A stretch of DNA of 26,510 nucleotides. Origin: Acidobacteriota bacterium (lineage in GTDB: Bacteria > Acidobacteriota > Vicinamibacteria > Marinacidobacterales > SMYC01). Numbering within the stretch: position 1 is the stretch's first letter; each line of letters starts with the position of its first letter. Made by a program: the position numbers and the translations under genes. Of this stretch, positions 3,230 through 25,826 are shown one piece after another. The DNA is taken from the NCBI GenBank assembly GCA_029263435.1, contig JAJCXL010000502.1:1-26510 (forward strand), written 5' to 3'. The notes beneath the pieces were generated by a model. The model searched no databases. It had not been told where the DNA came from and saw nothing but the letters and a program-made list of their open reading frames with translations.

Positions 3230-4003
3230 CTAGTCTGGTGAGACGAGTGCGTCCGCGAGAGCGTTAATCGCGACCAAAGACGGGGCACCGGTATCGACGG
3301 GAGCCATGCGTTTTTGATCTCCTCTTCTCAGCTCATCGTCGTAGGGGATCTCAGCCAAGATATCGAGTCCGTGTGCGCCCGCGTAGTCGGCAATTGCTTT
3401 CCGGTCGACCGCATCTCTTACCTTGTTCGCCACCACCACGACCCGCTCGACGCCCAACTCCTTGCCGAGCGCCACGGTGCGCCGCGCGGTCTCGAGCGCG
3501 CGATAGTACGGCTCCATCATCACGACCAGCGTATCCACGTGTCGCGACGTGCCACGACTCAAATGCTCGAGCCCTGCTTCCATGTCCACGACCGCGACGA
3601 CACCCTTTTCTTGAAGCATTCCACCCACGAGTTGCCGCACCGCGGCATGAGCGCGGCACATTCATCCGGAGCCGGCGTGGTCGACTTGTCCCATCAAGAG
3701 TAAACGGACCCGGTCGGGGCTCTCGGTCCCGTACTGCACGACGATGTCGCGAGCAGGGATACGCAAGTCGAGCTTTCTCTTCCCCTCGGCATCCGTCGTC
3801 TCTTCCAGGATCGTGCGCGGCATGGGTCTCAGTGCGGCCTGCGCATCTTCAGACAAGCCTAGAGTGGAGGCGAGGTTCGGATTGGAGTCCGCGTCGATCG
3901 CCCACACTTCATGGCCTCGCTGTGCGAAGAGACGGGCGAGGGTGCCCGCCATCGTCGTTTTTCCCGTGCCGCCCTTTCCGGCGATCGCTACCTTCGGATG
4001 CAT
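3230..4003 (-). CDS. cooC: CooC/AcsF-like nickel-insertion ATPase with in-frame UGA (probable Sec114), 257 aa
   Basis: Deviant Walker A GKGGTGKTT, then IDADSNPNL, GSG-[UGA]-MCRAH and VDMEAGLEHLSRG. The two track ORFs (3662-4072 and 3230-3661) are in the same frame and separated only by TGA 3664-3662. SD AAGGAG precedes ATG 4003. The joined length is typical of CooC. Confidence 0.88.
3623..3652 (-). promoter_or_regulatory. Candidate bacterial SECIS hairpin
   Basis: Starts 10 nt after the UGA. Lower stem GCUCA/UGGGU, upper stem UGCCGC/GCGGCA, apical loop GGU beginning 21 nt after the UGA. Confidence 0.6.
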
Positions 4004-4019
4004 GAAACTCCTTTGACAC

Positions 4020-4406
4020 TCAGTGTGCGAGGTGCTGACAATCGGCCGGATCGCCGGTCTCACTGCAATCACAATTCGGGTCGCCGCACTCCCCGTGTCC
4101 CGGCTTGGTCATGTCCGAGAACTCGTCCGCGAACCGTCGACCACCTTCCTTATTGCCGATGATGGTGAGGCGAAATCGCGGCTCGGCGGGAGCGCCATGG
4201 ACAGGCTGGGCGAGCACGCGCTCGACGAAGCCGAGCTCTACCATGCGCTCGAGCACCGGCCGGATGTCTTGCTCTTTCATCGTCAGCCACCGAACGAGCT
4301 CTGGGGAGGCGACGTCGTCGGCGAGGCCTTCGCCTCGAAGCCAGAAAAGGATCTGCAGGATCTCGTCGACGGCCGCGACGGGTTGGGCTTCGGGGTCAGA
4401 GGACAT
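4020..4406 (-). CDS. Hydrogenase-associated winged-helix protein with C-terminal Cys/His-rich tail, 128 aa
   Basis: SD GAGGAG before ATG 4406. wHTH-like core (EILQILFWLRGEGL...LERMVELGFV...RFRLT) and tail GHGECGDPNCDCSETGDPADCQHLAH. Confidence 0.75.
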   Translation of the reverse strand: MSSDPEAQPVAAVDEILQILFWLRGEGLADDVASPELVRWLTMKEQDIRPVLERMVELGFVERVLAQPVHGAPAEPRFRLTIIGNKEGGRRFADEFSDMTKPGHGECGDPNCDCSETGDPADCQHLAH

Positions 4407-4917
4407 GAGTCTCCTCTGTCGTCGCCAGGTAATCGACAACGAGGCGCTCGGCCTCACGAACGGCGGGCTCGAGACTCGCCTCCATCGCGGCCGTGAGCTG
4501 GGTCGTTACGTCGTCGCAAGATCCGACCTGCGCGCCTACGATCCAAACAACCTCGGGCAAGACGTCCATCGTCGCCGCGAGGTGAAACACCCCTTCAGGC
4601 TTGGCTTCGTGAAGGTCTACCGGGGTCGTGTGATCGCTTCGGTAGTGGGCGAGATCGGGCTCGAGGACAAAGAGTCGTCCGGCTTCGCAACCTCGCTCCA
4701 ATGCGTCGAGCACGAGCAACGCGTCGTATCCGTCCATGAGCTCGTGCACGAGGCCGATGCCTGCGATCCCACTTTCCCAAAAATGTACTCGTGGCTCCGA
4801 GCCGAGCCGACCCGCTCGCAGGCGTTCGAGGGAGCGAATGCCGAAACCGTCGTCGCCCCGAAGCACGTTTCCGACACCGGCCACGAGAATGCGCGGCGCC
4901 GGTGGGACTCTAGGCAT
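4396..4917 (-). CDS. Hydrogenase maturation endopeptidase (HybD/HupD/HycI family), 173 aa
   Basis: GVGNVLRGDDGFG, LLVLDAL and VDLHE give the full acidic/Asp/His metal-ligand set. ATG 4917 overlaps the upstream stop. Confidence 0.92.
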   Translation of the reverse strand: MPRVPPAPRILVAGVGNVLRGDDGFGIRSLERLRAGRLGSEPRVHFWESGIAGIGLVHELMDGYDALLVLDALERGCEAGRLFVLEPDLAHYRSDHTTPVDLHEAKPEGVFHLAATMDVLPEVVWIVGAQVGSCDDVTTQLTAAMEASLEPAVREAERLVVDYLATTEETHVL

Positions 4918-5407
4918 TGCTCTGGGCGAGCTTGCCGGTGGCTTCTCCAGGTTCTTCGGGCTGAGCGAGCCCAAAGAATTCATAGGTGGCGCGGGGCGCC
5001 AGAACGAGAGCCGCGAGGCTGACCGACAGGATCACGTGCTGCAGAGACATATGAGCCGTGGCGAACAGGCCGCCCAAGGGGTGAGTCATGATGGCGCGGG
5101 CGAAGGTGGGAACACATTCGAGACCGGTCACCAGCCATCCGGCCGCGAGAATGCCGGTGGGCAAGCTCAAGAGGAGAGGCAGGCGGTGGGCAAGCGCGGG
5201 CTTGAGCGCGAACACGACCCCGGCCAATGCGAGCACCGAAGAGCTGGGAAATAGAATTCCGTACAGCCCGACCATGGTCTGGGGCTGGGCGATCATCTTA
5301 TAGGGGATGTAGCCCAACAGACTGAGCCCCGCAAGGAACATCAGCATCCGGTAAATCTTCCACCGTCGACGTTTCTTGCCTTCGCAGCTCTCACCGTCGC
5401 ATTTCAT
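4910..5407 (-). CDS. Uncharacterised integral membrane protein (about 4 TM), 165 aa
   Basis: Four hydrophobic segments after a basic KKRRRWK stretch. ATGA overlap with the upstream gene and 8-nt overlap with the downstream gene. Confidence 0.75.
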   Translation of the reverse strand: MKCDGESCEGKKRRRWKIYRMLMFLAGLSLLGYIPYKMIAQPQTMVGLYGILFPSSSVLALAGVVFALKPALAHRLPLLLSLPTGILAAGWLVTGLECVPTFARAIMTHPLGGLFATAHMSLQHVILSVSLAALVLAPRATYEFFGLAQPEEPGEATGKLAQSNA

Positions 5408-6087
5408 GGCGTGACTCCTCCTGGGGTGCTCGTAACGTTCGTGGCAACTCTGATTCTATCCCCATCGAGGCTCACTTGAAAAGCCTCGAGCCGGGTGTCG
5501 GGGGCTCCGGCTTTGATCCCGGTTTGGACGTCATAGCGGCATCCGTGCCAGGGACAATGAATCTCACCGTCGACGAGCGTACCCAAGTGAAGCGGCAGAA
5601 TACTTCCGGGGCACGTGTTGCGATAAGCGTAGACCGCATCGTCGGTGGCGGCGATGAGCACCGGCGATTGCTCGATCTGAATCGCTCGAAGCACTCCGGG
5701 CGGGAGATCCTCTCGCGCGAAGGCGACGTTCCACGCGGGCTTTCGCTCCACGCCGCCAATCGCATCGAGAGGTATGAATCCGGACGAGTAAGGTGAGGCG
5801 ACCGTGGAGGTACTCTCGACCGGGGTGAGCGGCTCGCTCGGTATGAGGTCGTAGAGGATGAAAAGCATTCGGACGGCGGGGTCCGAGACCATCCGCTCGA
5901 TAAGTCCTTTGCCGCCCAGCTCGCTGAGCACTTCGAACAGGCCCCACACGCAGCTTCGGTGGAGGTGGTCGATATTCTCCACGAGCTCCAACGCCTTGCT
6001 CTTGGCGCTGGATTCCGGCAGGGCCTCGAGCTCTGTGACGAGCTCCGCGACCCGCCGCGCATGATGTTCGAGGTCGTGGGAAGCCAT
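5404..6087 (-). CDS. Hydrogenase-associated Fe-S protein: helical N-terminal domain plus C-terminal Rieske-like domain
   Basis: C-terminus AYRNTCPGSILPLHLG...IHCPWHGCRYDVQTG is Rieske ferredoxin-like. The N-terminus resembles the leader domain of NifU-like hydrogenase accessory proteins. Confidence 0.78.
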   Translation of the reverse strand: MASHDLEHHARRVAELVTELEALPESSAKSKALELVENIDHLHRSCVWGLFEVLSELGGKGLIERMVSDPAVRMLFILYDLIPSEPLTPVESTSTVASPYSSGFIPLDAIGGVERKPAWNVAFAREDLPPGVLRAIQIEQSPVLIAATDDAVYAYRNTCPGSILPLHLGTLVDGEIHCPWHGCRYDVQTGIKAGAPDTRLEAFQVSLDGDRIRVATNVTSTPGGVTP

Positions 6088-6090
6088 CGC

Positions 6091-6603
6091 TCAGTCCATC
6101 TGCTCGGGGAGGACGGTTGCTTGCGCGAGCTCGCGCACGACGCGACAGACCTCAGGGAGCCGCGCCGCGACCTCGTCACTGGCGGTGAGACCCGCGCCGG
6201 TCGTGAGCGCACGGATCTCGACGATGATGACTTCGGGCGGAAGCGCGTCGAACTGCTGAGCGATGATGGGAAAGCTCTCGAGGTCGATGACACCCGTCAC
6301 CGCCTCTGCGACCCGGGTTTGGATCTCTTCAGGAGAGGGAAGCTGGCCGTGCCACGGATACCATCGGTAGCCCTGGTCCGACGACACGTTCTCCGATGCG
6401 CCCAGAAGAACCAACCGCTCGTAAGGAGGCTTTTTCTCTGACAGACGATGAACCGTCGCGATCGGGCCGCCATAGCTCAAGTCGCAAACGTCGACCTCTT
6501 TGGGCAGAGATTCTTGCTGCAGCCTCTCCGCGACCATCAATCCCGCCGACAAGTCGCTTAAGTTGAAATAGCCGACGCTTCCCACGAGCGTTCGCTTCGT
6601 CAC
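6091..6603 (-). CDS. Hydrogenase maturation protease-like protein with degenerate metal ligands
   Basis: LVGSVGYFNLSDLSAG...RLVLLGAS...PEVIIVEI follows the HybD/HycI fold pattern. GTG start with SD AGAAAGG. Immediately follows the large subunit gene. Confidence 0.72.
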   Translation of the reverse strand: MTKRTLVGSVGYFNLSDLSAGLMVAERLQQESLPKEVDVCDLSYGGPIATVHRLSEKKPPYERLVLLGASENVSSDQGYRWYPWHGQLPSPEEIQTRVAEAVTGVIDLESFPIIAQQFDALPPEVIIVEIRALTTGAGLTASDEVAARLPEVCRVVRELAQATVLPEQMD

Positions 6604-6609
6604 GCCTTT

Positions 6610-8496
6610 CTACTCATCGACACCGCACGCGCAGGTATTGATCTCTCGCGACACGACGTGATCGCCGGCGTGAACGTGGGTCGTGCACGGCATGCACGGG
6701 TCGAAGCTTCTCAGCGTTCTCAATACGTCCACCGCTTTGAAGCTCTCCGGCGAGTCGAACTCCTCCAAGATTGGAGTCGCCATGACGGCTTCTTCATAAG
6801 GGCCGAGGTGACCCCAAACGTCTCGGGGCGAGGCGTTGATCGTGGACGGAGTGATGATCTGATAGTTCGCGACGAGGCCGCCATCGAGCTCGAGATGATG
6901 ACTGAGCCACCCACGCCCGGCTCCGGAGAAACCGACGCCCACGCGAGTGCCTCGGGTGGGAATCTCGAACGGCGTAGAGACATCGGTCTTGCCCTGCTTG
7001 AGGTAGTCGAGGCCTTTTAGCCAGTTGTTCATCGCGACGGCGTTGTTGAACAAAATTGCGTAAGCTCTGGCGCGGTTTCGCTCGAACGTGTTCCACACTT
7101 TCGGAATCTTCCACTCCATCTCGACTTCGGGTTTCTGACTCTTGGGGACTCGAAACTTGAGACTCTTTCCCGTCGCTTCCACGAAATCGTTCGTCGGCAT
7201 TTTTTGCGCGGCGGCCGTCGTCCACAGTCGGGTATAAGCTCCGGCTTCGAAAGATTGGCGATCCCATCGGGGCGCACAGGACCAGGAATATTTCTCCTTC
7301 CAGTTCTGTCCGGTGGGCTTGGGTTTGGTCTCCTTGTTCCACGGGTGGTACGGGCTGAGCGGGTTGCCGCTCGGGTCACTTGCAAAACGCTTGCCCTCCC
7401 ACTCGTCGTAGAAGGAGTGCTCGACGAACTCCTCGATCCCGGCATTGATCGCGGTGAGCTTGGTCGTGACGAGCTCCCCGTTCATGATGACGCCCGGGGT
7501 GGACCACCTCTTTTCACCCCATGAGTCGCAGTTCTCGTAGGAGGCGTCATAGGCTTCCGGATCGTCCCAGAGCCCGAGATCCGCCATGTGGATCGGGCGC
7601 TCACCGCACTTCTTATAGAGGGGATTCAGCTCGTAGAAAAACTCCGTGATGTCGTCCCAGATCGCGGCCACTTTCTTCGAGTAGTCGAAAAGCTGCTGGA
7701 GCCTGGTGTAGTACTCGTTGAACGCTTGGAGGCTCACGAGCGTGCTGACCCCACCGGGGACGATCGTCTCCGGATGTGGATACTTGCCGCCGAGCACGAC
7801 ATAGGCCTCGCGGGCGAGGCGGGTCATGGCGAGAGCTTCGACGTATAACTTTCCGGATAGCGGGTTCAGGTCGGTCATGATCTCTGCCATCGTGCGGTAG
7901 CCGTGAAGATCTCGCCCTCTCGCGTCGTAGGTCTTGGCCTTTGCCCAGGCCGACGGGTTGGTTTGCTCTACGACGAGCTGGGAGTAGTCGGGCCCGGCGA
8001 GGAGAAACAAATGGAGCGGATGATCGTAGTTGAACTCCATCGCGAGCATGAGGTTGCGAATGACGATGCCCAGTGGAGGGGGCACCACTCCGAGGGCCAT
8101 CTCGATGGCTTTGACGGCGGCGATCGAATGGACGCCGCCACACACGCCGCAAGCGCGGCTAGTAATGAAGACGGCGTCGCGCGGGTCGCGTCCGTTCATG
8201 ATGATCTCGTAACCGCGAAACAAGGTCGCCATCGAGTTCGCATTGAGCATCTTGCGCTCTTTGAGATCCGCGACCGCGTGGAACGCCAGAGCACCCGCGA
8301 CCCGGGTGACCGGATCGAAGTCCACATCCTTGACGAAACCATTTCGCGCGAGAAGCTCTTTGATCGCTTTGTCCGACAGAGGCTTCGGCCCCACGATATC
8401 GGGCGTGCCGGCCAAGGCGAAGGCTCTCGTCGCTTCTTCCCGAAGGGTCATGCGGCCTTGGGCATCGATGTCGATCGGCAGATTTTTGAAGCACAT
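6610..8496 (-). CDS. hylL: [NiFe]-hydrogenase large subunit (group 1, probably 1l), 628 aa
   Basis: L1 TSRACGVCGGVH and L2 SFDPCMPCTTH, followed by a 21-aa cleavable extension. The group call rests on gene layout and motifs, not on a tree. Confidence 0.95.
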   Translation of the reverse strand: MCFKNLPIDIDAQGRMTLREEATRAFALAGTPDIVGPKPLSDKAIKELLARNGFVKDVDFDPVTRVAGALAFHAVADLKERKMLNANSMATLFRGYEIIMNGRDPRDAVFITSRACGVCGGVHSIAAVKAIEMALGVVPPPLGIVIRNLMLAMEFNYDHPLHLFLLAGPDYSQLVVEQTNPSAWAKAKTYDARGRDLHGYRTMAEIMTDLNPLSGKLYVEALAMTRLAREAYVVLGGKYPHPETIVPGGVSTLVSLQAFNEYYTRLQQLFDYSKKVAAIWDDITEFFYELNPLYKKCGERPIHMADLGLWDDPEAYDASYENCDSWGEKRWSTPGVIMNGELVTTKLTAINAGIEEFVEHSFYDEWEGKRFASDPSGNPLSPYHPWNKETKPKPTGQNWKEKYSWSCAPRWDRQSFEAGAYTRLWTTAAAQKMPTNDFVEATGKSLKFRVPKSQKPEVEMEWKIPKVWNTFERNRARAYAILFNNAVAMNNWLKGLDYLKQGKTDVSTPFEIPTRGTRVGVGFSGAGRGWLSHHLELDGGLVANYQIITPSTINASPRDVWGHLGPYEEAVMATPILEEFDSPESFKAVDVLRTLRSFDPCMPCTTHVHAGDHVVSREINTCACGVDE

Positions 8497-8497
8497 G

Positions 8498-8782
8498 TCA
8501 GTTCGATCCTTTTTGGCCGAGTGCGTCAGCCGTGCGTTCCAGGTTTTTGTCGACGTGCTCGAACTCGCCGCTCAAGGCTGAAAGAGCTCCGGCGATGGTT
8601 GTGATGCGCTCTTTCAGCGGCTTCGCGTTGTCGCGCACGCGGATGAGGCCGGCGGCGAGCTTATCCAGGTGCTGGCTCGCCCGGAGAAGATAAAACGCGA
8701 CGCCGCTGAGATAAGTGGCGAGCACCACGACGATGGCTGCGGTAAGAACGAGCGTCCAGAGAGTGAGGGTTTCAGTCGTCAT
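8498..8782 (-). CDS. Small single-pass membrane protein TM5 (94 aa)
   Basis: MTTETLTLWTLVLTAAIVVVLATYLSGVAFYLL followed by an amphipathic helix. Starts 2 nt after the TM4 stop and stops 1 nt before hylL. Confidence 0.8.
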   Translation of the reverse strand: MTTETLTLWTLVLTAAIVVVLATYLSGVAFYLLRASQHLDKLAAGLIRVRDNAKPLKERITTIAGALSALSGEFEHVDKNLERTADALGQKGSN

Positions 8783-8784
8783 GT

Positions 8785-9078
8785 CTACGAGTCCTTCGCG
8801 GACGTCACCGCGGTCGCGATATCGGCTGTGCGCGCCTTCACACTTTGCGTGGTGGTCAGTAGCTTCGTCGCCGTCGTTATCGTCGCCGATAGAGCCGCCA
8901 CCGCTTCGGTGTTCGACGCGATGCCGGCTCCGGCGGTGAGCGCTTCTTCGAGGTTGCGCTCGATGTTGCGAGCGGCGGTCAACGTACGATGTAGCAAGAC
9001 GATCGCGAGCGGTACTACGACGAAGCTCACCACGCCCAACGTGACGGCCCAAATCCAAAGTGCGGCTTCCGGGATCAT
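8785..9078 (-). CDS. Small single-pass membrane protein TM4 (97 aa)
   Basis: N-terminal TM helix plus Ala/Thr-rich amphipathic helix. ATGA overlap with TM3. Confidence 0.8.
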   Translation of the reverse strand: MIPEAALWIWAVTLGVVSFVVVPLAIVLLHRTLTAARNIERNLEEALTAGAGIASNTEAVAALSATITTATKLLTTTQSVKARTADIATAVTSAKDS

Positions 9079-9365
9079 TTTTCACCTCCGGTGAGGTTGC
9101 CGACGACGGTCTCGAGCTCTTGATCGACTGCGGCGAGCCCGTCGCCCAGCGACGCGAGCCCTGCATTGAGCTTCGTCACTTGCGGTGCGAGGTGCCCGGT
9201 CTCGGTCTCGATGGCGCGCAGCCCGAAGCGGATCTTCGCGAGAAAGCTCGTCGGGGATCCTCCGATCGCGTCGAGCTCTCGATGGATGAGGATGAGGTAG
9301 ACGGCGACCACCAACAGCAGGGCCACGGCTGCCAAACAGCTCAGAAGAGTCAGCAGCGTGATCAT
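9075..9365 (-). CDS. Small single-pass membrane protein TM3 (96 aa)
   Basis: MITLLTLLSCLAAVALLLVVAVYLILI followed by LAKIRFGLRAIETET. ATGA overlap with TM2. Confidence 0.8.
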   Translation of the reverse strand: MITLLTLLSCLAAVALLLVVAVYLILIHRELDAIGGSPTSFLAKIRFGLRAIETETGHLAPQVTKLNAGLASLGDGLAAVDQELETVVGNLTGGEK

Positions 9366-9658
9366 GACGATTGGGTAGCCTTTCTGATGCGCTGAGCGGC
9401 GGAAGCGATGCTCCCCGCCGAGTCTAGCAGCGCCCCGGCCAAGTGATTCGTCCGTTTGAGGTGAGCGATATTGACGGTGTTTCCGGCGATGCGTTTTCCG
9501 CCCGTCCAAATGTCGGACACGCTGGTGAGAATCCGGCGCGCGGTCATCAGAATCATTTGCAGGAGTGCTATCACGACGAGCAGCACGACCGCACCGAGCA
9601 CGAGCGCGACGATCCAACGTTGTTCGGAGACTGGGGAAAGTGTCCATAAAGTGAACAT
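9362..9658 (-). CDS. Small single-pass membrane protein TM2 (98 aa)
   Basis: WIVALVLGAVVLLVVIALLQMIL TM helix plus amphipathic tail. SD GAGGAAGG. TTG 9661 is an alternative start. Confidence 0.8.
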   Translation of the reverse strand: MFTLWTLSPVSEQRWIVALVLGAVVLLVVIALLQMILMTARRILTSVSDIWTGGKRIAGNTVNIAHLKRTNHLAGALLDSAGSIASAAQRIRKATQSS

Positions 9659-9673
9659 CAAAGGTTTCCTTCC

Positions 9674-9949
9674 TCAACCGAGCCGGTCGGCGATCGTGTG
9701 GACTCGCTGATCGACGGATTGCACCGTACGGGCGATACCCTCGGTGATTCGGTTGGCATCGCCAAGGGACCAGATGGGCTGGGTCGCGGACTCGATCTCA
9801 GCCGCCACGCTGAGCGCGGTCGCGGCGAGGCTCGCGATCTTTCGCGCCACCATCAGAATCGTGATGAGGAGCACGGCCACCGCGAGGACGACCACGGCGC
9901 CGAGGATGAACCCCAGCCGCCACTGTGCAAGAACGTCGGTCTCGGTCAT
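9674..9949 (-). CDS. Small single-pass membrane protein TM1 (91 aa)
   Basis: MTETDVLAQWRLGFILGAVVVLAVAVLLITILMV plus amphipathic tail. ATGA overlap with the small-subunit stop. Confidence 0.8.
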   Translation of the reverse strand: MTETDVLAQWRLGFILGAVVVLAVAVLLITILMVARKIASLAATALSVAAEIESATQPIWSLGDANRITEGIARTVQSVDQRVHTIADRLG

Positions 9950-11193
9950 CGGTTGTCTTCTCCGGTCTTGTCGACATGCGAGCCGGGCTTGGAAGTGCCG
10001 AGGAACTGATACTTCTCGTAGACTTCGTGAACGAGTCGTTTCGCGAAACTCGGCTTGTCCACGTTCCCCCAACCACTGGGGACGTGATCGTCCCACCTCG
10101 TCGTTCGGTTCTGAAATTGCTGGGTGAGACGCCGGAGAGTGCGGATGAACGTGCCGGTCACTCGAGACAAGTTGGTCGAGACGAGCGAACCAGGCGGCAT
10201 CTTGTAAAACGGTGCGAATCGGTCTGGGAATCCCGGCATGGTGCAGCCGATACAGATCCCTCCCGTGTTCATGCACCCACCCATGCCGTTGATGGCGCCG
10301 CGCTGGGTGATGTTGCATTGAACGACCGGACCCCAACAGCCCACCTCGACGAGACACTCCTTGTCCCCGTAGCTCTCGGCAAAGAGTCCTTCTTCGTAGA
10401 AGCCGGCGCGGCCGCAGCGCTGGTGTACGGTCTCTTGGAAAAGCCACGCGGGGCGTCCGAGCTCGTCGAACTCAGGCAGCGGGCCCAATCCTTGTAAAAA
10501 CAAGAGGACCGCGGCAACGGTCTCGGTAAAGTTGTCGCCGACGGGGGAGCAGCCCGGGATGTTCACCACCGGAAGCCCCAGATCGCTTCGATAGTTCTGG
10601 CCGAGAAAATCCATGACGCCCATAGCTCCGGTTGGATTGCCGGCCGCCGCTGGGACGCCTCCCCATGTCGCGCAGGTGCCGATCGCTATCGTCGCCGCCG
10701 CGTTAGGTGCGAGGCGCGAAAGCCAGCTCGCGGTCGGGATGGGTTTCGATTGTCCGTTGGGAAGCTTCTCCGCGCCGAGCGCCGACCAGTAGCCTCCGTG
10801 TTTCTCCGCCAATCTCTCATCGGCGACGGAGCCCTCGAAGATGACCACATAAGGAGCGCCAAGCTCGCCTCTTTCGGCCATCCGATAGTTCTCGACGAAG
10901 GCATCTCCCGCCTCCACCGACAGCACTGGATGATGAAGCACCACCCGTGGCACCCCTGGAATCGTTCCCGCCATCAACATTTCCGCCGAGGGACTGGTGG
11001 CTCCGACGACACAGATCGAGCAGCCGTCGCAGCTCATCCCGGCCAGCCAGAATGCATGGACGACGTCGTAGGGCCCGAGGTTTAGCTTCTCCGACTTTGC
11101 CTCTTGCAGCCGGGCTTCTCGAAGGGCAGCAGGCGCCGCCCAGCTGTCGGGATCCATGTTCGACGCAACGTTTCCGTTCGCGATTTCTGCCAT
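9946..11193 (-). CDS. hylS: [NiFe]-hydrogenase small subunit (no Tat signal), 415 aa
   Basis: Proximal SCDGC / GTCA / PGCSP, distal HQRC...ECLVEVGC, medial CN...GGCMNTGGICIGC. SD GAGGAG. Confidence 0.94.
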   Translation of the reverse strand: MAEIANGNVASNMDPDSWAAPAALREARLQEAKSEKLNLGPYDVVHAFWLAGMSCDGCSICVVGATSPSAEMLMAGTIPGVPRVVLHHPVLSVEAGDAFVENYRMAERGELGAPYVVIFEGSVADERLAEKHGGYWSALGAEKLPNGQSKPIPTASWLSRLAPNAAATIAIGTCATWGGVPAAAGNPTGAMGVMDFLGQNYRSDLGLPVVNIPGCSPVGDNFTETVAAVLLFLQGLGPLPEFDELGRPAWLFQETVHQRCGRAGFYEEGLFAESYGDKECLVEVGCWGPVVQCNITQRGAINGMGGCMNTGGICIGCTMPGFPDRFAPFYKMPPGSLVSTNLSRVTGTFIRTLRRLTQQFQNRTTRWDDHVPSGWGNVDKPSFAKRLVHEVYEKYQFLGTSKPGSHVDKTGEDNR

Positions 11194-11218
11194 CTTGTGG
11201 CTCCTCTCGAAAAACGCT

Positions 11219-12289
11219 TCAGCAAATCCTGGGGAGCTGTTCCCCCGAGATCATCGTGACGACGCGCTCTCCGCCGACCGCCGAGCGCATCAAGACCATT
11301 GTTGGGTGGTCCGCGACGGCCTCTCCGACGATCGCGGCGTCTGCCCCGAGCGGGTGCTGTCGCATGGCGTCGAGTACGTCTTCCGCGCTTTCGGCGGGCA
11401 CGGCCGCGACGAGCTTTCCTTCATTTGCGACGTAGAGCGGATCCAGACCGAGGATCTCGCAAGCCGCGCGCACTTCGCGCTTCAGCGGGATGGCACTCTC
11501 TTCGAGCACCAAGCCGACTTGAGAGCTTCGTGCCAGCTCATGAAGCACGCTCGACAGCCCGCCTCGGGTCAGATCCCTCATAACGCGAACGGGAGCACCG
11601 GTCGCGAGAACCTTCTCCGTCAGTCCGGACAACGGCGCGCTATCGCTTTCGATGGTGGTCTCGAACTCGAGGCCTTCTCTCACCGATAGAATGGCGATGC
11701 CGTGGTCGCCGAGGGTCCCGGAGACGATGAGCTTGTCTCCGGAACGAACGCTCGCAATGGAGAGGGTCCGGTCCTTGGCCACCAGGCCGACGCCCGAAGT
11801 GTTGATGAATATCTGGTCCCCTTTGCCGCGCTCGACGACTTTGGTGTCACCGGTTACGAGACGCACGTCCGCGTCCCGACACGCTTCGCCCATCGAGCGC
11901 AGCACCCGCTCGAGTGTCTCGATCGGGAGTCCTTCTTCGAGGATGAGCCCGGCGCTCAAGGCGAGAGGGCGCGCCCCGCCCACAGCGAGATCGTTGACCG
12001 TTCCATGCACCGCGAGCTTGCCAATATCTCCGCCCGGAAAAAACAGCGGCTGAACCACGTAAGAATCCGTCGTGAACGCGAGTCGGCTGTCACTTTGCGG
12101 CAGGCTGAGCGTCGCTTGATCTTCCAAAGCCGCCAGGATGTCATTGTCGAAAGTCGGCACGATGATGCGATGGATCAAGTCTTCCATGAGCTGTCCGCCA
12201 GCTCCGTGGCCCATCGTGATCTCGGGATAACGCGACTTGGGAATAGGACAGCTACCCGCGAGCTCCGGACCAGTGAGCGGTTGGCTCAC
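11219..12289 (-). CDS. hypE: Hydrogenase maturation carbamoyl dehydratase HypE, 356 aa
   Basis: [31 protein letters not shown] and C-terminal PRIC. GTG start overlaps the hypD stop (GTGA). Confidence 0.97.
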
Positions 12290-13401
12290 CGTGCGACCTC
12301 CGTCGTCGCGGCTTCGAGGTGCCGTCCATAGGCGTAATAGGCGGCACAGGCGCCTTCGGATGAGACCATCGTCGCGCCGAGTGGCGTTTGCGGCGTGCAC
12401 GCCGTACTGAACGCCGGGCAGTCGAGGGGTTTTTTCACCCCTTGTAGAATCTCGCCGCTGATACAAATCGGAGATTCTCGGGTCTCGACTGTCTCGACGT
12501 CGAAGCGGCTGGCGGCATCGAACGCGCGGTAGCTCTCCGAGAGCCGGTAGCCGCTCGCCGGGATTGTCCCTATTCCCCGCCACTTCCGGTCGCAGACGTC
12601 GAAGACTTCGGCGAGAAGATCGCGCGCGTGCGGATTGCCCTCCCGGCTCACGACTCGCCGGTACGGCGTTCGAACCTTGGCTTCACCGGCTTCGAGCTGC
12701 TCGACCGTACGTAGGATGCCCTCGAGCATGTCGACCGGCTCGAAGCCGGTGATCTCGATAGGCACGCCGTAGCGCTCCGCAAGGGGCTCGTACTCTTCGG
12801 TACCCATCACGGTACAGACGTGGCCCGGCCCGAGAAAACCGTCCACCCGATTCGCGGGCGACTGAAGCAGAAACTCGATGGCGGGGGGCACGAGCACGTG
12901 AGAGGCGAGGATGCTGAAGTTGTCGAGACCGCGGCGACGGGCTTGCTTCACCGCCATCGCGTTGGCCGGGGCGGTGGTCTCGAATCCCACCGCGAAGAAC
13001 ACGATGTCGCGGTAAGGGTGTTTGGCGGCGAGCTCGACCGCGTCTAACGGTGAGTAGACGACGCGAACGTCGGCGCCTCGTGCTTTGAGCTCGAGGAGGT
13101 CACCCTGAGAGCCCGGCACGCGCAGCATGTCACCGAACGAGGTAAAGATGACCTCGGGACGGGACGCGATCGAATGCGCGCGGTCGATGACCTCGAGGGA
13201 CGTCACGCATACCGGGCATCCCGGCCCATGAACCAGCTCGAGCGCCTTCGGGAGCAACCGATCGATCCCGAACTTCACGATCGTGTGTGTCTGTCCGCCG
13301 CAGATCTCCATGAGGGTCCAAGGTCGCGTCATCGCTCGTTCGATGCCCTGGACCAGCTTGCGAGCAGCGACGGGGTCGCGGTATTCGTCCAGATATCTCA
13401 T
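12286..13401 (-). CDS. hypD: Hydrogenase maturation protein HypD
   Basis: [26 protein letters not shown] and the C-terminal Cys cluster with [10 protein letters not shown]. Confidence 0.98.
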
Positions 13402-13655
13402 GAGCCGGGATCCTCGAGCTTCAACTCCGCGATCTCTCCCATGCTGTCGAGCAGCTCGAACACCTCGCGCGCGTACTGTTCGTCGATGCGTGACAGCGCA
13501 AATCCGACGTGCACGAGCACATACTCGCCCGGCTCGACCTCGGGAACGTGGTCGAGGCAGATCTTCTTGACCACTCCATCGAAGCTCACTTTTCCCATGA
13601 GGATGTCGTGCTCACGAAAGGTATCGATGACTTTTCCGGGAACTCCGAGACACAT
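13398..13655 (-). CDS. hypC: Hydrogenase chaperone HypC
   Basis: N-terminal MCLGVPG and YVLVHVGFA. Confidence 0.97.
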
Positions 13656-13658
13656 GAC

Positions 13659-16004
13659 CTAAACGCCTCCTTCAAGAGCTGCGGAGAGCTTCGCGGCAGC
13701 CACCGCGATCTGTCCGAGCGCGAGACCTCCGTCATTCGGAGGGACGTGATGGTGCGTGAGCACTCGAAAGCGTTTCGCTTCCAACGCCCGAAGGGCGAGT
13801 CGTGTCAGCAAAACGTTTTGAAACACACCGCCCGTGAGCGCGACACGATGAATGCTTCGCTCTTCGCGGATCCCGTCGCACATCTCGACGATGCATCGTG
13901 CGAGCGACGCGTGGAAACGTCTCGCTACGCGTTGGGGTGTGGCGCCCCCCGCGAGCTCTTCCACGATGGCCGTGGTAAGCGGTCGCGTATCCACGACCCA
14001 GCCGGACGCTCCGGGCGCGATCTCGAAAGGATAAGGCGCTTCGTCTGCTTCACCTTCGCAAAGCCACTCGAGGGCCATCGCCGCTTGCCCTTCGTAGGCG
14101 ACGACGTGCCGCAGCCCCACGAGAGACGCCACGGCGTCAAACAGCCGCCCGGCGCTTCCGCTCGGCGGAGATTGCACGCCGCGCTCGATCATCGCCCATA
14201 CGATCGCGGCTCGCTCCTTGGGGATGTCCGTGGCGTCACCCGCGTCGAGGCCGGCGTCGTGGAGATACGATAGAGCCATCCGCCAGGGCTCGCGGGCGGC
14301 GGCGTCGCCTCCAGGGAGAGGGACCGGCCGTAGCGACCCGACTCGGGTGAAGGACCGACAGTCGCCGACGAGAAACTCGCCTCCCCAAATCGTTCCATCG
14401 GTGCCCAGGCCCGCTCCGTCGAACGTGACGCCGATCGCCGGCTCGAGCGCCTCGGGCCCGTGGGAGATGGCATTGTCGGCGAGACAGCTGGCGAAATGCG
14501 CGTGGTGATGCTGGACGCCTATTTGGGCGACACCCCGTTCGTTTGCCCGGGTTGTCGCGTAGCGCGTCGAAAAATAGTCTGGATGAAGATCGTGGACCAG
14601 TGCCTCCGGCTCGAAATCGAAAAGGTCTTCATAGAGTGCGATATCCCGCTCGAAAGCCTGGCACGCTCGGAGGTCACTCAGATCGCCGATGTGATGACTC
14701 AGAAAGGCGTTGGGTCCAATGCCGAGAGCGAATGTGTTTTTCAAATGGCCGCCGACCGCGAGTAGCTTTTTCGAGGCCTCGACCGAAAGGCGCAGCGGCT
14801 CGGGAGCGAAACCTCGAGATCGGCGGATAGGCGTCGAGGTCGCCCCCACGACGCGCACTACGGAGTCGTCGCACCGTACCCGAATGGGCCGGTCATGCGT
14901 GAGGACGACGTCAGCGATAGCGCCGAGCCGGTCCACCGCGTCGTCGTCCTCGTAGGCGATGGGCTCGTCGGAGAGATTCCCGCTCGTCATGACGAGAGGT
15001 CGTCCGTCAAGAGCGCGCGAGAGCACGAGATGAAGGGGAGTGTACGGGAGGAGGACGCCAATCGTCGGATTGGAAGGCGCGACGGCTTCCACGACGATGG
15101 ACGGATGCCTTTTTTCGAGCAAGACGATGGGGCGGTGTCTCGAACGAAGCAGCTTCGCCTCGTGACTCGACACGTGCGCCCATCGACGCGCGGCGTCGAC
15201 ATCGGCCGCCATGACCGCGAAGGGTTTCTCGTAGCGCCTCTTCCGCTGCCGTAATCGGGTCACGGCCGCGGACGACGTCGCGTCGCACACGAGGTGAAAG
15301 CCTCCGAGACCTTTCACGGCCGCGATGGCACCGTGGCGAAGGCGCGTGACGAGATCGGTCATCGCATCGCCGGTTGGGCCATCTTCGTTCGCAGTGCCAT
15401 GCAACCGGAGCGTCGGACCACAAGCCGGACAAGCGTTCGGTTGGGCGTGGAATCGACGATGGGTCGGGTCTTTGTACTCTCTCCGGCAATCGCCGCACAT
15501 CGAGAAGCCCGACATCGACGTCCGTTCACGATCGTAGGGGGCACCTTCGATGATCGTCAGGCGGGGTCCGCACTGCGTGCAGTTCAAAAACGGATAGAGG
15601 TAGCGTCGGTCTCGCGGATCGAACAGCTCGCGCTCGCAATCCGAGCAGGTCCCGAGATCCGCGAGAAATCGAGGGCTAGGGCCGGGGCGGGTCGCTTCGG
15701 TCGCACTCGCTCGGATCTCGAACCGCTCGGCACCATCGACCGGCATCGGTTGCCAATGCAACGACTCGATGCGAGAGGTCTCGGGGGCGCTTTCGGGAAG
15801 GGCTTCGATAAACGCTTCCAGGCTTTGGGGCTCCCCCTCGATCTCGATGCGGACCCCGGTTACGTCGTTGACGACGAAGCCGCGGAGCGCGTGGCGCGCG
15901 GCGAGAGAGTGAACGTAAGGTCGAAATCCGACGCCTTGAACGAGCCCCCGCACGGAGATCGCCCGGCGTTCGGCATGTCGATCGTCTACGACGGGCGCAG
16001 TCAT
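13659..16004 (-). CDS. hypF: Carbamoyltransferase HypF
   Basis: Acylphosphatase domain (VQGVGFRP), two CxxC-x18-CxxC zinc fingers, KGLGGFHL, HDLHPDY, QHHHAH and LTGGVFQN. Confidence 0.98.
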   Translation of the reverse strand: MTAPVVDDRHAERRAISVRGLVQGVGFRPYVHSLAARHALRGFVVNDVTGVRIEIEGEPQSLEAFIEALPESAPETSRIESLHWQPMPVDGAERFEIRASATEATRPGPSPRFLADLGTCSDCERELFDPRDRRYLYPFLNCTQCGPRLTIIEGAPYDRERTSMSGFSMCGDCRREYKDPTHRRFHAQPNACPACGPTLRLHGTANEDGPTGDAMTDLVTRLRHGAIAAVKGLGGFHLVCDATSSAAVTRLRQRKRRYEKPFAVMAADVDAARRWAHVSSHEAKLLRSRHRPIVLLEKRHPSIVVEAVAPSNPTIGVLLPYTPLHLVLSRALDGRPLVMTSGNLSDEPIAYEDDDAVDRLGAIADVVLTHDRPIRVRCDDSVVRVVGATSTPIRRSRGFAPEPLRLSVEASKKLLAVGGHLKNTFALGIGPNAFLSHHIGDLSDLRACQAFERDIALYEDLFDFEPEALVHDLHPDYFSTRYATTRANERGVAQIGVQHHHAHFASCLADNAISHGPEALEPAIGVTFDGAGLGTDGTIWGGEFLVGDCRSFTRVGSLRPVPLPGGDAAAREPWRMALSYLHDAGLDAGDATDIPKERAAIVWAMIERGVQSPPSGSAGRLFDAVASLVGLRHVVAYEGQAAMALEWLCEGEADEAPYPFEIAPGASGWVVDTRPLTTAIVEELAGGATPQRVARRFHASLARCIVEMCDGIREERSIHRVALTGGVFQNVLLTRLALRALEAKRFRVLTHHHVPPNDGGLALGQIAVAAAKLSAALEGGV

Positions 16005-16489
16005 TCGCGCTCATGCCTCAAAGCGAATCTGACCACTGATTGGTGACCGGACGGTGGCAGGGCCGGCTGCGCGAATCGCTTCTGACCCTCGCCGATGCCT
16101 TCCGGCGTGAGCGCGTAGCGGGCCGGTATCCGAGTCGTTTGAGCGGCGACTAGGCCGCCGTCGGTCAACGCTTTGAGGTGGCGCTCAACCACTCTCGGAG
16201 AAACGTCGAGGAGCGATGCGAGCTCGGCCGAAGTAACCGTCAATCCCAGGCCCTGGCTCAACAGCCAGTGCATCAAGTGATGGGTCTCCGTCTGAAGGTC
16301 CGGCGGCTTCGCGGGTGAATGGTCCCGCTTCTGGGTCCACGTCACGATGGCGTCGCGGTGGAACCGCCAATCGGTTCCCATCTTGAACGCTGGAATCCGG
16401 CCTTTACGCGCGAGGCGGTAGACCGTGTTGGGATGTACCTTCAAAAAGTTCGCAACCTCGGCGACGGTCAAGACCTCTTGCGGGGACAT
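16001..16489 (-). CDS. Putative transcriptional regulator: excisionase-like (HTH_17/MerR-like) DNA-binding domain plus C-terminal winged helix, 162 aa
   Basis: LTVAEVANFLKVHPNTVYRLARKGRIPAFKMGTDWRF is a typical Xis-like HTH. SD GGAGG before ATG 16489. ATGA overlap with hypF. Confidence 0.85.
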   Translation of the reverse strand: MSPQEVLTVAEVANFLKVHPNTVYRLARKGRIPAFKMGTDWRFHRDAIVTWTQKRDHSPAKPPDLQTETHHLMHWLLSQGLGLTVTSAELASLLDVSPRVVERHLKALTDGGLVAAQTTRIPARYALTPEGIGEGQKRFAQPALPPSGHQSVVRFALRHERE

Positions 16490-16527
16490 TTCCAGCCTCC
16501 AAACCAATTACGTGGTGAACGTGTGTC

Positions 16528-16557
16528 ACCGTAGGTCACCCGGCGCCGGTCTGTCAA
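16528..16557 (-). promoter_or_regulatory. Candidate sigma70 promoter of the hydrogenase operon (TTGACA-N18-TACGGT)
   Basis: Minus strand TTGACA at 16557-16552 and TAnnnT-type box at 16533-16528, 39 nt upstream of the regulator start. Confidence 0.55.
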
Positions 16558-16587: not shown

Positions 16588-18831
16588 TCAGGGCATGGGC
16601 TGGAACAGCTCATTGCCGAGATCGGCGTCGAAACGCACGTCCGTATAGGTGATCTCGGTTTGCTGATGGCTCAAGACGCCGTCGTCGTCGTAGCCCCACG
16701 CGAGCCGTCGGGTGGGCATGCGAATGCCGTCGATGGTCCGATGGTCCGCGTAAGTGCTGAACGATTGCTCGATCGGTTGCGGGCCGTATTTCAGGTGGTT
16801 CGCGACCAGCCTGGCATCCTCCGGAGAGAAGAAATAGGTCCACGTGTGGTACCCACCTGAGCTCCCCGCACCTTTCTCATAGTCGACGACCAGCTCATCC
16901 GCGCTCGATCCATCCGGAAGCTCGGCTCGGCCGACCCGCGTGAAGATCGCGCCAGGATCCGTGAGCTTGAACGGCATCGAGAACACGTAGTGGGAGCCAA
17001 ACGTCGAGTTCCACGCTTGATCTTTATCGGCTTGGGCGGTCGCGAGAGCGCCGTCCGCATACTTCCACGCCTGCTCGCCGTTGTTGATGAGCACGACCGT
17101 CTTGCCGGCCTCTTGTCGCTCCATCCGAACTTTGATCGTGGGGCTCAGAAGATATTGATGTTTCTCGGAGACGGTTCGCTCTAGGTTTCCGGCGGCGTCG
17201 AAATACTTGGTCGTCTTGATGTAGGAGACGCTCTTCTTCGCCGCCCAAGCTTCGAAACTGTCGGATGCGTAGGCGATGGCGCGGCGAACGAGCGCTCCGG
17301 CTTCGTTTTCCGGGAGCCTGGCCATGGGGCTGGAAGACGCTGTCACGGTGTCACCGTTTTTCGCGAGCCACTCTCTCACGTTTTCGAGAACGAGCGCGTG
17401 ACCGTAGCTTCCAGGCGGAAGCGCCGCGAGCTCGACAGCGATCTCTTTCGCGCGATCAGTGCTGCCGGCCCCGTCATGCGCGCGGGCGAGGAGCCAGCGA
17501 TTGAAAGGGTCGCCGAGCTGCGATTGTTGCAAGTGCTCGATGGCGTCTTCGAACGCCTCTTGCTCGACGAGGATATAGCCCATCAGATAGTGATAAGCGG
17601 GTAAGAAGCGTTCTGCCTGGTCACCGCTCTCGTCGATCCTCTCCTTCATCTGGGCGGCCATGGAGAGTGCCTCGTCGAATCGACCTTGCCGGGCCTTGAT
17701 CCGCGCCTGTGCGTGTAAGTAGCGTCCGTCCCACAATTGACGCATGAATGGCGACAGGTCCGGTTCTCGGCTGATGGCGAGACTGCGGTCGTAGGTCGCG
17801 GCGGCCACGTCGTAGCGGCCTTGCTCGAGATAGAGTCTGGCGAGCGCGTTGTAGAAAATCGGCGCGTTGTCGAGACGGGTCTCGTATGTGTAGTCGGCCG
17901 TCGCTTCGAACACTTGCGCGGCTTGCTCGGGATCGCCCGCGAGCAAATGCGTCATGCCGTAATCGAAACAAACGTCCTCGGCTTTGATCCAATCGAGATA
18001 GAGCTCCTTATAAGCCCCGTCGCCGAGCGCCTGCGTCGCGTCACACAAGTCCCGGTATGCTTCGATCGCGCTCGAATGGTTCTCGGCGATCCGAAAGCTC
18101 GCGGCCCGTCCATCGAGGGCGGGGACGAAATCACTATCTGCCCCGAGTGCTTCGTCATAACCGCGAATGGCGTCATCGATCTGGCCGCGGTTTCTGAGAA
18201 TGTCGGCCTGGACAGTCAGCGCCCGAGCACTCAGAGGCTCGAGCTCGACGGCACGGTGTATCGCTTCGAGCGCGCCGTCGGTGTCTCCGGCGGCCAGACG
18301 GGTCTCGGCAAGCCGAACGTGCGCCGGGGCGAATGTGTCATCGATGGCGATCGCCCGAGACATCGCCTGCTCTGCGGCGTCGAAGTCTCGCGATTTGTAG
18401 TGGAACCAGCCAAGCTCGAACTGCGCTTGAGCACTCTCAGGCAACGCACCGATCACTTGCGACAGGGTGTCGCGCGCGGCCGGGTAGTCCTGGCGCCCCC
18501 AGGCAGTGAGCGCCTCGAGCCAGAGCTTCTCGACCTCACTCGCTCCTTCGATCGTCGCCGCGGCGCGCTGCCAGTGTCCTTCGACATCGCCGGTATAGTT
18601 CATGCTCAACGCCTGGTATCCGTGCGCGAGCGCGAAATCCGGGTCGGCCGTGAGCGCGTCGCCGAAGGCCGCCATCGCCGGCGTCATCTGCTGTCGGTTG
18701 AAATGCGAGATTCCCGTCTGAAAGTGAGCCCGAGCCTCGTCCGACGAAGTCGTGAGCGGCATCGGTGACGGCCCGCGGTCGCAACCGCTAAGACAGACTG
18801 CCAGTAGAACCAAAGACAAACCAGCACGCAT
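16588..18831 (-). CDS. TPR-repeat lipoprotein with a C-terminal beta-rich domain (possibly DUF6503/LolA-like), 747 aa
   Basis: Lipobox LSGC (Cys17) from ATG 18831 with SD GGGAGA. Many TPR-like helical repeats, then a distinct domain (SHYVFSMPFKLTDPG). The family name of that domain is from memory and unverified. Confidence 0.8.
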   Translation of the reverse strand: MRAGLSLVLLAVCLSGCDRGPSPMPLTTSSDEARAHFQTGISHFNRQQMTPAMAAFGDALTADPDFALAHGYQALSMNYTGDVEGHWQRAAATIEGASEVEKLWLEALTAWGRQDYPAARDTLSQVIGALPESAQAQFELGWFHYKSRDFDAAEQAMSRAIAIDDTFAPAHVRLAETRLAAGDTDGALEAIHRAVELEPLSARALTVQADILRNRGQIDDAIRGYDEALGADSDFVPALDGRAASFRIAENHSSAIEAYRDLCDATQALGDGAYKELYLDWIKAEDVCFDYGMTHLLAGDPEQAAQVFEATADYTYETRLDNAPIFYNALARLYLEQGRYDVAAATYDRSLAISREPDLSPFMRQLWDGRYLHAQARIKARQGRFDEALSMAAQMKERIDESGDQAERFLPAYHYLMGYILVEQEAFEDAIEHLQQSQLGDPFNRWLLARAHDGAGSTDRAKEIAVELAALPPGSYGHALVLENVREWLAKNGDTVTASSSPMARLPENEAGALVRRAIAYASDSFEAWAAKKSVSYIKTTKYFDAAGNLERTVSEKHQYLLSPTIKVRMERQEAGKTVVLINNGEQAWKYADGALATAQADKDQAWNSTFGSHYVFSMPFKLTDPGAIFTRVGRAELPDGSSADELVVDYEKGAGSSGGYHTWTYFFSPEDARLVANHLKYGPQPIEQSFSTYADHRTIDGIRMPTRRLAWGYDDDGVLSHQQTEITYTDVRFDADLGNELFQPMP

Positions 18832-18913
18832 CGAATTATTCTCCCGCGGAGATTTTATCAGCCTTCCCGCATGCATCCCATCATCGAAGTCGCTGTTACT
18901 CCGGCTCGCGGCG

Positions 18914-23858: not shown

Positions 23859-23913
23859 CGACGGCGACGAACCCTGGGGGCGGGATAGTGGAGATGGTTG
23901 GAGAACGCAAGAA

Positions 23914-24396
23914 ATGAGTCCTAGCGCAGAGTCGGGTTCTCCCTACGAGAACATCACCGAGATGACCTTGCTCACTCCGATCAAGGACGGAGAAGCCGAC
24001 GAGCTCGCTCAGGTGCTTGCGGCAGTCCAGATCGCGGAAGACAGCCCCATCAAGAAGATCTCGACGATCCACTACGCCCGATGGGTGATCCTCGACGAAG
24101 GGGCCCGGTTGCTGTTTACGAGCAACTTCGATGGGACGTGGGAGAAATACCTGCGTGATTTTTCGGAGAAGATCCCCGAGGGGCTCGACGCGATCTGGGG
24201 GCACTGTGTGGGATGGCCCGGCGCTCAGCCTTTCGCGCCGTTTCGAAAATGGGTCGATCGACATCAAGTTCCCGCGAACTTGTTCTACGCCGCCTATCCC
24301 GAGAGCACCGTTCGAGAGGTCCAACGAGCACTCGACTGGAAAGAAAAAACCGAACGCTTCGTCGCGGAGCTCGCGAAGCCTCCCCGGTCCTCATGA
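23914..24396 (+). CDS. DyP-associated uncharacterised protein (paralog 3)
   Basis: TIHYARWVIL...FTSNFDGTWEKY...IPEGLDAIWGHCVGWP...FYAAYP. Confidence 0.78.
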   Translation: MSPSAESGSPYENITEMTLLTPIKDGEADELAQVLAAVQIAEDSPIKKISTIHYARWVILDEGARLLFTSNFDGTWEKYLRDFSEKIPEGLDAIWGHCVGWPGAQPFAPFRKWVDRHQVPANLFYAAYPESTVREVQRALDWKEKTERFVAELAKPPRSS

Positions 24397-24421
24397 TGGG
24401 TGACGCCACGGAGAGTCGTCC

Positions 24422-25813: not shown

Positions 25814-25826
25814 CCCGAAAGGAACG

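Follow-up and report, generated by a model that had tools for sequence, protein, structure and literature searches.

Group 1l [NiFe]-hydrogenases are reported to be the dominant oxidisers of atmospheric H2 in Antarctic soils. To our knowledge neither the maturation nor the regulation of these enzymes has been described. Their gene clusters carry five small genes between the two subunit genes, together with a Rieske gene and hupD, and they also hold conserved open reading frames (ORFs) "with no predicted function" (Ortiz et al., bioRxiv 10.1101/2020.08.06.239558). In Thermomicrobium roseum, the conserved hypothetical genes hhaABC lie downstream of hhySL (bioRxiv 10.1101/457697), and neither paper (10.1101/2020.08.06.239558; 10.1101/457697) gives those ORFs a fold, a motif, a function or a link to a regulator. 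Here we analyse a hydrogenase operon on a 26,510-nucleotide stretch of DNA from an Acidobacteriota bacterium (contig JAJCXL010000502.1, positions 1 to 26,510, hereafter the window), and in particular its first gene, Reg, and its penultimate gene, CysT. CysT is most likely, by its gene neighbourhood, one of the unlabelled conserved ORFs of group 1l clusters, and our literature search for a named function among hhaABC and group 1l maturation genes returned only conserved hypotheticals and unlabelled ORFs. We likewise found no paper treating the CysT or the Reg family, and neither has a Pfam or NCBIfam model.

The reading that we prefer, at a probability of roughly 0.55, is that CysT is a metal-handling maturation factor, and that Reg is a transcription factor in which an HTH_17 domain is joined to a CysT-like domain and which acts on a set of TGAC repeats. 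CysT would work with the HupD endopeptidase and a CooC-type ATPase that carries selenocysteine (Sec) or Cys, either replacing HypA/HypB or acting beside them, and the metal that it handles would most likely be nickel. The CysT-like half of Reg would be an oligomerisation or input module, through which Reg might read metal directly (its conserved residues His71 and His149 being candidates) or else respond to the state of CysT and of the maturation machinery. With such an arrangement, expression of the operon may be informed of nickel supply or of enzyme assembly.

Pairwise and profile comparison show that the two genes have a specific winged-helix domain in common, which is homologous in both and about 95 residues long. 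BLASTP aligns the proteins with 27 of 88 residues identical (31%, E 2e-6), and an hhalign comparison of the CysT family profile (A1, 34 sequences) with the Reg family profile (A2, 14 sequences) gives 98.8% probability and an E-value of 6.9e-17 over 94 columns, which span the entire domain from helix 1 through the helix-turn-helix (HTH) and the wing to helix 4. The baselines are far weaker. Against the PDB the A1 profile reaches at most 19 bits (the top chain is a MarR protein, E 0.013), and at E <= 1e-8 in a sample of 201 whole genomes from the window's class it retrieves CysT orthologues and Reg and nothing else. The part of the A2 profile outside HTH_17 scores 36-46 bits on CysT proteins and no more than 17 bits on winged-helix proteins of the PDB. 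The positions common to both families are a Trp in helix α1, the pattern L-T-x-x-G-x-x-E-x-x-x-R-F and a Gly-His pair, so that α1, α4 and the Gly-His which follows are the elements kept in both. In MarR-type proteins those helices make the dimer interface and the metal sites.

The original prediction, made from the letters of this DNA by manual alignment, had proposed such a shared winged-helix domain, and both the BLASTP and the profile-profile comparison bear it out. Its counts of identical positions (13 of 47, and 9 of 17 followed by Gly-His) agree with the BLASTP alignment, the similarity proved to be more than what winged helices have in common generally, and the two genes are indeed first and penultimate in an operon whose last gene encodes the CooC-type ATPase. 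It was also right that Reg has an additional Xis-like HTH and no Cys tail (HTH_17, PF12728, scores 75.9 bits against a cut-off of 27, and Reg is without any Cys), and that CysT lacks this HTH and ends in a Cys4/His tail, with four Cys and a His within the last 25 residues, which is invariant in the family. In an unrooted tree the Reg domains group in a single clade, and a branch of 2.09 substitutions lies between it and all CysT sequences. Reg is not nested among the CysT sequences of Vicinamibacteria in this unrooted tree, and an origin of Reg by recent local duplication of CysT is not supported. From these comparisons the C-terminal half of Reg is best described as a paralogous sister family of CysT, which has only the core in common with it and is without the Cys/His tail.

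The CysT family comprises 291 homologue clusters at 90% identity and 255 representatives at 50%. The CysT of the window is 50-66% identical to 33 family members and possesses all columns that are invariant in A1 (D14, E15, Q18, W22, the E87-F96 block, H104, E106, C107, D109, P110, C112, C114 and C123), with H125 in the tail as well. The signature of α1 is D-E-x-L-Q-x-x-x-W-L-x-G-E, that of α4 is E-G-G-R-R-F-A-D-E-F, and the tail follows the consensus G-H-x-E-C-x-D-P-x-C-x-C-(6-10)-C-x-H. This Cys/His tail is retained in 78 of the 78 stand-alone CysT copies listed, and it frequently terminates in H-x-H or poly-His. An AF2 model of CysT (mean predicted local distance difference test, pLDDT, 82) has a confident winged-helix core, for which Foldseek returns MarR, PadR, AdcR and ZitR as the top folds (E ~1e-3), and the model and these matches together give CysT a winged-helix fold with flanking dimerisation helices, as in MarR/ArsR proteins. 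CysT does not, however, score above threshold on the hidden Markov models of MarR/ArsR families, and its recognition helix and wing are not of the basic or polar kind that suits DNA. Pfam and NCBIfam searches gave no family for CysT, a feature search of the ESM Atlas returned unnamed hypothetical clusters only, and a motif search with the Cys/His tail alone against the PDB gave nothing at E <= 10. The family is acidic (median isoelectric point, pI, 4.8; net charge -10), and its putative recognition helix has a net charge of -2 and is variable, α1, α4 and the tail being the invariant parts. We infer that CysT is not a DNA-binding protein and that its invariant Cys4/His tail points to the handling of a metal, probably nickel, in maturation.

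The distribution of CysT follows that of the hydrogenase. It occurs in approximately 160 species genomes of at least eight phyla (Acidobacteriota, Verrucomicrobiota, Planctomycetota, Chloroflexota, Gemmatimonadota, Actinomycetota and others), and across a set of 80 loci it is placed nearly always after the large subunit HylL, the protease-like prot170, the Rieske protein and HupD. Mostly it stands directly ahead of the CooC-type ATPase, as in loci of Acidobacteriota, Gemmatales and Gemmatimonadota. Within the class sample, CysT is found in 7 of the 7 genomes with a HylL of at least 61% identity, and it is missing from the 2 genomes whose large subunit reaches no more than 43%. CysT is also repeatedly fused in frame to HupD, as 281-aa open frames in two genomes (G109 and G136), as a 271-aa protein at locus L174, and in seven further cases (P0136, P0137, P0149, P0173, P0146, P0165 and P0166). 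These fusions come from many independent clusters and include the two closest Reg-bearing relatives of the window. In one protein (P0169) it is prot170, whose gene sits directly after that of HylL in nearly all loci, that is joined to CysT through a Cys-rich linker. By its gene neighbourhood, CysT belongs to the core set of accessory genes in group 1l (Hyl) [NiFe]-hydrogenase clusters, and because it is often fused to HupD and strongly acidic, maturation or metal handling is its probable primary role.

Its partners in the cluster show related features. The gene of the CooC-type ATPase has an in-frame TGA (3662-3664) precisely where the CxC metal motif would have its first Cys, and among 41 homologous genes from several phyla this codon is TGA in 32 and Cys in 9, an alternation which, read at the codon level, is the classic Sec/Cys signature. 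HylL continues past its C-x-x-C-x-x-H nickel motif with a highly conserved C-terminal extension of about 21 residues (6610-6675), in which the motif N-T-C-(A/G)-C is invariant in 59 of 59 loci and to which the Chthoniobacterales add a His-rich end. A C-terminal extension of the large subunit is the substrate of HupD-type proteases. A C-x-C motif is common to the HylL extension, CysT and the ATPase (as Sec/Cys-x-C), and its recurrence may indicate a nickel relay. HypA (PF01155) and HypB (TIGR00073) remained below cut-off in the window's own genome (G000, 76% complete) and did not exceed it in seven other genomes with group 1l hydrogenase and CysT (G001, G003, G004, G042, G054, G078 and G177); four of the genomes negative for both are 99-100% complete, and G003 is a single 10.4-Mb contig. 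CysT thus represents a widespread accessory family and a candidate for the missing nickel-insertion partner, because it accompanies the endopeptidase and the CooC-type ATPase with Sec, often where the genome is without HypA/HypB.

Reg is far more restricted. Its N-terminal domain also matches the excisionase-type model TIGR01764 (57.5 bits, cut-off 28.8), is basic (pI ~10.4), and has the BldC-DNA complexes 6AMK and 6AMA as its top relatives in the PDB. Reg does not belong to the BldC subfamily (NF033787, 36.1 bits against a cut-off of 77), having 162 residues and two domains. Over residues 65-131 Pfam gives weak winged-HTH matches. The invariants of this CysT-like half are H71, W75, G80, L127, G131, E134, R138, G148 and H149, of which Gly148-His149 lie beyond residue 142 and are accompanied by a C-terminal helix. 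The invariant His71 occupies the position of the invariant Gln18 of CysT, and every Cys has been lost. The AF2 model of Reg (pLDDT 85) has AdcR and ZitR among its best folds. The Reg family holds only 15 homologue clusters, and a full-length Reg occurs in 3 of the 201 class genomes, all of one acidobacterial family; the GTDB species set adds just one further genome and a low-GC contig (L082), where a Reg homologue of 33% identity again heads a group 1l-type cluster. Reg is the first gene of a Hyl operon in every case. The co-occurrence check that the original prediction proposed came out in one direction only, as Reg is never found without CysT, whereas CysT is present in all 7 Hyl genomes of the sample and Reg in 3 of the 201. 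On this evidence Reg is a lineage-restricted transcription factor, an HTH_17 domain joined to a tail-less CysT paralogue.

A candidate operator for Reg lies ahead of its own gene, where three TGAC-type direct repeats with a period of 10 bp overlap the -10 region. The phased pattern has its sole match in the window at this place (0.15 expected), and the same repeats stand at the same place ahead of the Reg orthologues at four other loci (L081, L163, L173 and L174). They are recognisable ahead of the L082 homologue too, and three T(G/C/A)AC repeats with this period are thereby conserved at six loci altogether. A scan for strict sigma-70 consensus promoters and terminators around the Reg start called nothing, and the promoter elements given here come from visual inspection and from their conservation. 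On phased direct repeats BldC assembles into head-to-tail multimers (PMC5859096), and by homology to it, together with the conservation of the repeats, Reg probably binds the three TGAC repeats head to tail. For group 1l operons, Reg would be the first transcription factor to be proposed, and these repeats the first candidate operator. In two of the loci (L173:6595-9910 and L174:6520-9859) an ATP-binding cassette (ABC) transporter is divergent from the Reg promoter, and for its SBP_bac_5 protein the top-scoring model is NikA, at 162-179 bits, below the cut-off of 393. In the window this neighbouring place is taken by a TPR protein (16588-18876).

A second and separate union of CysT with a DNA-binding protein is found in the Chthoniobacterales. 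These bacteria carry two CysT genes approximately 1.2 kb apart, and the second copy (CysT2) is fused in frame to a complete NikR in five independent assemblies (L003, L006, L008, L037 and L175/P0144), the NikR part including both the ribbon-helix-helix domain and NikR_C. The possibility that P0144 joins CysT to the C-terminal nickel domain of NikR alone was ruled out, since the whole NikR is present. The fusion gene is followed by genes for a TonB-dependent receptor and a NicO-type nickel permease within the hydrogenase cluster (L006:11152-15202). CysT2 nests inside the verrucomicrobial CysT clade of the unrooted tree, and in helix 1 it does not differ from the free CysT copy. These gene structures show at least two unions of a CysT-type domain with a DNA-binding protein; partner and domain order differ between them, and a free CysT is present nearby in each case. 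They favour an input or interaction module, since one would hardly expect a DNA-binding domain to be attached to proteins that bind DNA already. The original prediction had described the proposed control as unlike that of NikR systems; this holds for the window, where neither Reg nor CysT has a ribbon-helix-helix or NikR_C domain in Pfam searches, but not for the Chthoniobacterales, whose CysT2 is fused to NikR itself.

The coordinates of these features and of the remaining genes are collected in Table 1. The operon is a single one on the minus strand, running from about 16560 to 3230 by its ORFs and family profiles, and the start of CysT overlaps the stop of hupD by 11 nt. Long overlapping frames called by the ORF finder at the small membrane-protein block (222, 200 and 257 aa) mask the short genes there; on orthologous contigs five genes of 89-97 aa are called between the small and the large subunit genes. 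With five small transmembrane genes, the Rieske protein HylE and HupD the operon is of group 1l, an assignment drawn from gene layout. The nearest public genome is a Vicinamibacteria metagenome-assembled genome (MAG) with a large subunit of 83% identity. Farther upstream, the window encodes a 7TM-PAS-GGDEF diguanylate cyclase (18914-20542, minus strand), and at 20826-26510 on the plus strand two DyP-type peroxidase genes with interleaved small genes that have no Pfam family.

Table 1. Features of the hydrogenase operon and of the Reg promoter, in window coordinates
Feature	Position	Strand	Remarks and evidence
-35-like TTGACA	16552-16557	-	read from sequence; kept in alignment A3
-10-like TACGGT	16528-16533	-	18 nt from TTGACA
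Three TGAC-type direct repeats, 10-bp period	16515-16538	-	overlap -10 region; candidate Reg operator
Reg, 162 aa	16001-16489	-	operon gene 1; ORF and translation; ATG 7 nt past GGAGG
Reg HTH_17 domain, BldC/Xis-type (residues 6-55)	16325-16474	-	Pfam PF12728, E 2.9e-21
Reg CysT-like winged helix (residues 62-142)	16064-16306	-	BLASTP, hhalign, AF2 secondary structure
hypF, hypC, hypD, hypE	after Reg, in that order	-	family matches
Hydrogenase small subunit	9946-11193	-	after hyp genes
Small membrane-protein gene block	8498-9949	-	between subunit genes
HylL, group 1l hydrogenase large subunit	6610-8496	-	NCBIfam NiFe large-subunit matches
prot170, second divergent protease-like gene	6091-6603	-	weak TIGR00072 match, E 1.4e-5
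Rieske protein (HylE)	5404-6087	-	operon gene
Membrane protein	4910-5407	-	operon gene
HupD/HycI-type maturation endopeptidase	4396-4983	-	Pfam HycI, E 3e-10
CysT, 128 aa	4020-4406	-	penultimate gene; ATG 5 nt past GAGGAG
CysT winged-helix core (residues 7-100)	4107-4388	-	alignment and AF2
CysT Cys4/His tail (residues 101-128)	4023-4106	-	alignment
CooC/ParA-type P-loop ATPase	3230-4003	-	last gene of operon; Pfam CbiA/ParA

Several points weigh against the preferred reading of CysT as a maturation factor and Reg as its regulator relative. On the side of CysT, AF2 confidence is low in the tail, which alone is also unmatched in the PDB, and a Cys4 site could equally well hold a structural zinc or an Fe-S cluster. 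Three of the genomes with CysT (G002, G005/G136 and G109) possess hypAB, and the absence of HypA/HypB elsewhere rests on MAGs. The HupD fusions could partly reflect adjacency, with loss of the stop codon between overlapping genes. On the side of Reg, the winged helix is roughly neutral and its third helix has the canonical S/P-x-R-x-V-x-R; because this recognition-helix pattern is kept, the CysT-like half could contact DNA, and the domain may descend from a metalloregulator of MarR/ArsR type. The branch between the Reg domains and CysT is long in a tree that cannot be rooted, and 13 of 100 shuffles of the sequence give at least one match to the repeat pattern, which is therefore only modestly unlikely within the window.

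The alternative closest to the original prediction is that CysT and Reg form a heterodimer through the common domain, with the metal state of CysT switching Reg and so giving a nickel or maturation feedback on the operon. We consider this unlikely. It draws on the retention in both families of residues on α1, α4 and Gly-His, the dimer interface of MarR-type proteins, on the metal-sensing MarR proteins AdcR and ZitR among the best folds, and on the fact that Reg is never found without CysT. Its best circumstantial support is the Chthoniobacterales fusion, which makes it plausible that this domain has some tie to transcription factors. There a free CysT and a paralogue fused to a DNA-binding protein, NikR, arose independently; α1 is identical in the two copies, and the fused one nests inside the local CysT clade. 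The co-occurrence would be expected regardless, because Reg lies inside Hyl operons, and in the window's own genome α1 and α4 of Reg and CysT are only loosely alike by BLASTP. The great majority of Hyl clusters have CysT without such a regulator, and because CysT is conserved in them, sensing for Reg is not its main function. Fusion of CysT to HupD in the closest Reg-bearing relatives complicates a simple heterodimer further. The part of the original prediction that made CysT a metal-sensing subunit for Reg is contradicted by this distribution, by the HupD fusions and by the acidic charge. It would be equally simple, by analogy with the AdcR/ZitR-type fold matches, for Reg to form homo-oligomers through its CysT-like domain and to sense metal with its own His residues.

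With a similarly low expectation one may extend this idea and regard the CysT domain as a module that couples nickel delivery or enzyme assembly to transcription. A CysT chaperone, free or fused to HupD, would pair through α1/α4 with the copy grafted onto a DNA-binding protein, and its loading or consumption would switch the hyl/hyp promoter and, in some lineages, a nickel-uptake promoter. If true, the design would have had two separate origins, one giving HTH_17-CysT in Acidobacteriota and the other CysT-NikR in Verrucomicrobiota, and it would be a switch of partner from chaperone to regulator that is not described for any hydrogenase.

We give still less credit to the view that CysT is itself a MarR/ArsR-type metal- or redox-responsive factor autoregulating Hyl clusters, with Reg as a derived second regulator. 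The MarR/PadR-like fold suits it, as do the canonical recognition helix in the copy carried by Reg, a layout like that of ArsR/SmtB sensors with metal sites on α5 or a C-terminal tail, the ArsR- or IclR-family label that one JGI annotation gives to a CysT member, and a locus (L025) where the cysT gene comes first and a hyp operon runs divergently next to it. Set against these are the strongly acidic family with its acidic, unconserved recognition helix and the lack of any Pfam or NCBIfam DNA-binding family at threshold. The usual place of CysT is in the middle of the operon, with maturation genes around it, and fusions to the maturation protease recur; the NikR and HTH_17 fusions would then hold two DNA-binding domains. 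That the resemblance between Reg and CysT is generic or due to chance, and biologically meaningless, is very improbable: Pfam does give several generic HTH families on residues 65-131 of Reg and identity is only 31%, but the profile match (E 7e-17) covers helices outside the HTH, no other winged-helix protein in the 201 genomes or the PDB nears such scores, and the signature positions are common to two genes of the same operon type.

It is useful to set the preferred reading, a maturation factor and a regulator related to it, beside the systems already described. Whether hydrogenase expression is tied to nickel or maturation status becomes a directly testable question, given two separate unions of the accessory domain with DNA-binding proteins. 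For Reg the nearest solved relative of the HTH_17 domain is BldC of Streptomyces (E 5e-5), a protein that binds phased direct repeats, and the promoter of Reg carries three phased repeats as its candidate operator. BldC is a single domain of 68 residues, without an input domain and with AT-rich repeats, whereas Reg has the additional CysT-like domain. AdcR, ZitR and ArsR/SmtB are winged-helix dimers that build their metal sites from the N-terminal helix together with the C-terminal helix or tail, which is where CysT and Reg keep their common invariants; the sequence likeness to metal-sensing MarR/ArsR proteins is marginal (E >= 0.01, at most 19 bits), and these have no counterpart of the Cys4/His tail of CysT. 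The NikR system is nickel-responsive, and the CysT fusion near nickel-uptake genes in Chthoniobacterales parallels the HTH_17 fusion, but the Reg of the window carries none of the NikR domains. HoxA/HupR with HoxJ and HoxBC likewise controls uptake-hydrogenase operons; its two-component parts are not in this operon, where a profile scan found neither a receiver, AAA+ or Fis domain nor a histidine kinase or a regulatory hydrogenase.

Among maturation proteins, HypA offers an analogy to CysT, as both would be small Cys4 accessory proteins encoded with a SIMIBI-class nucleoside triphosphatase in a maturation cluster. The two are related in neither sequence nor fold: HypA has an N-terminal MHE nickel site and a zinc site of two CxxC motifs, and CysT has a winged-helix core and a C-x4-C-x-C-x8-C tail, without PF01155 or the HypA motifs. 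CooJ and CooT are nickel chaperones that act with CooC, small dimeric proteins with Cys- or His-rich tails encoded beside a CooC ATPase, and CysT has such an ATPase as its neighbour and frequently a terminal H-x-H or poly-His. They differ in serving the maturation of CO dehydrogenase, no homology to them was detected, and the ATPase that accompanies CysT carries Sec in most lineages. The hhaABC genes and the unlabelled ORFs of group 1l clusters share the gene neighbourhood of CysT. The parts of this system, the winged helix, the HTH_17 domain and the Cys/His metal site, are of known kinds; what is new is that they are combined in this way, that a regulator and an accessory protein are paralogous, and that such a design has recurred.

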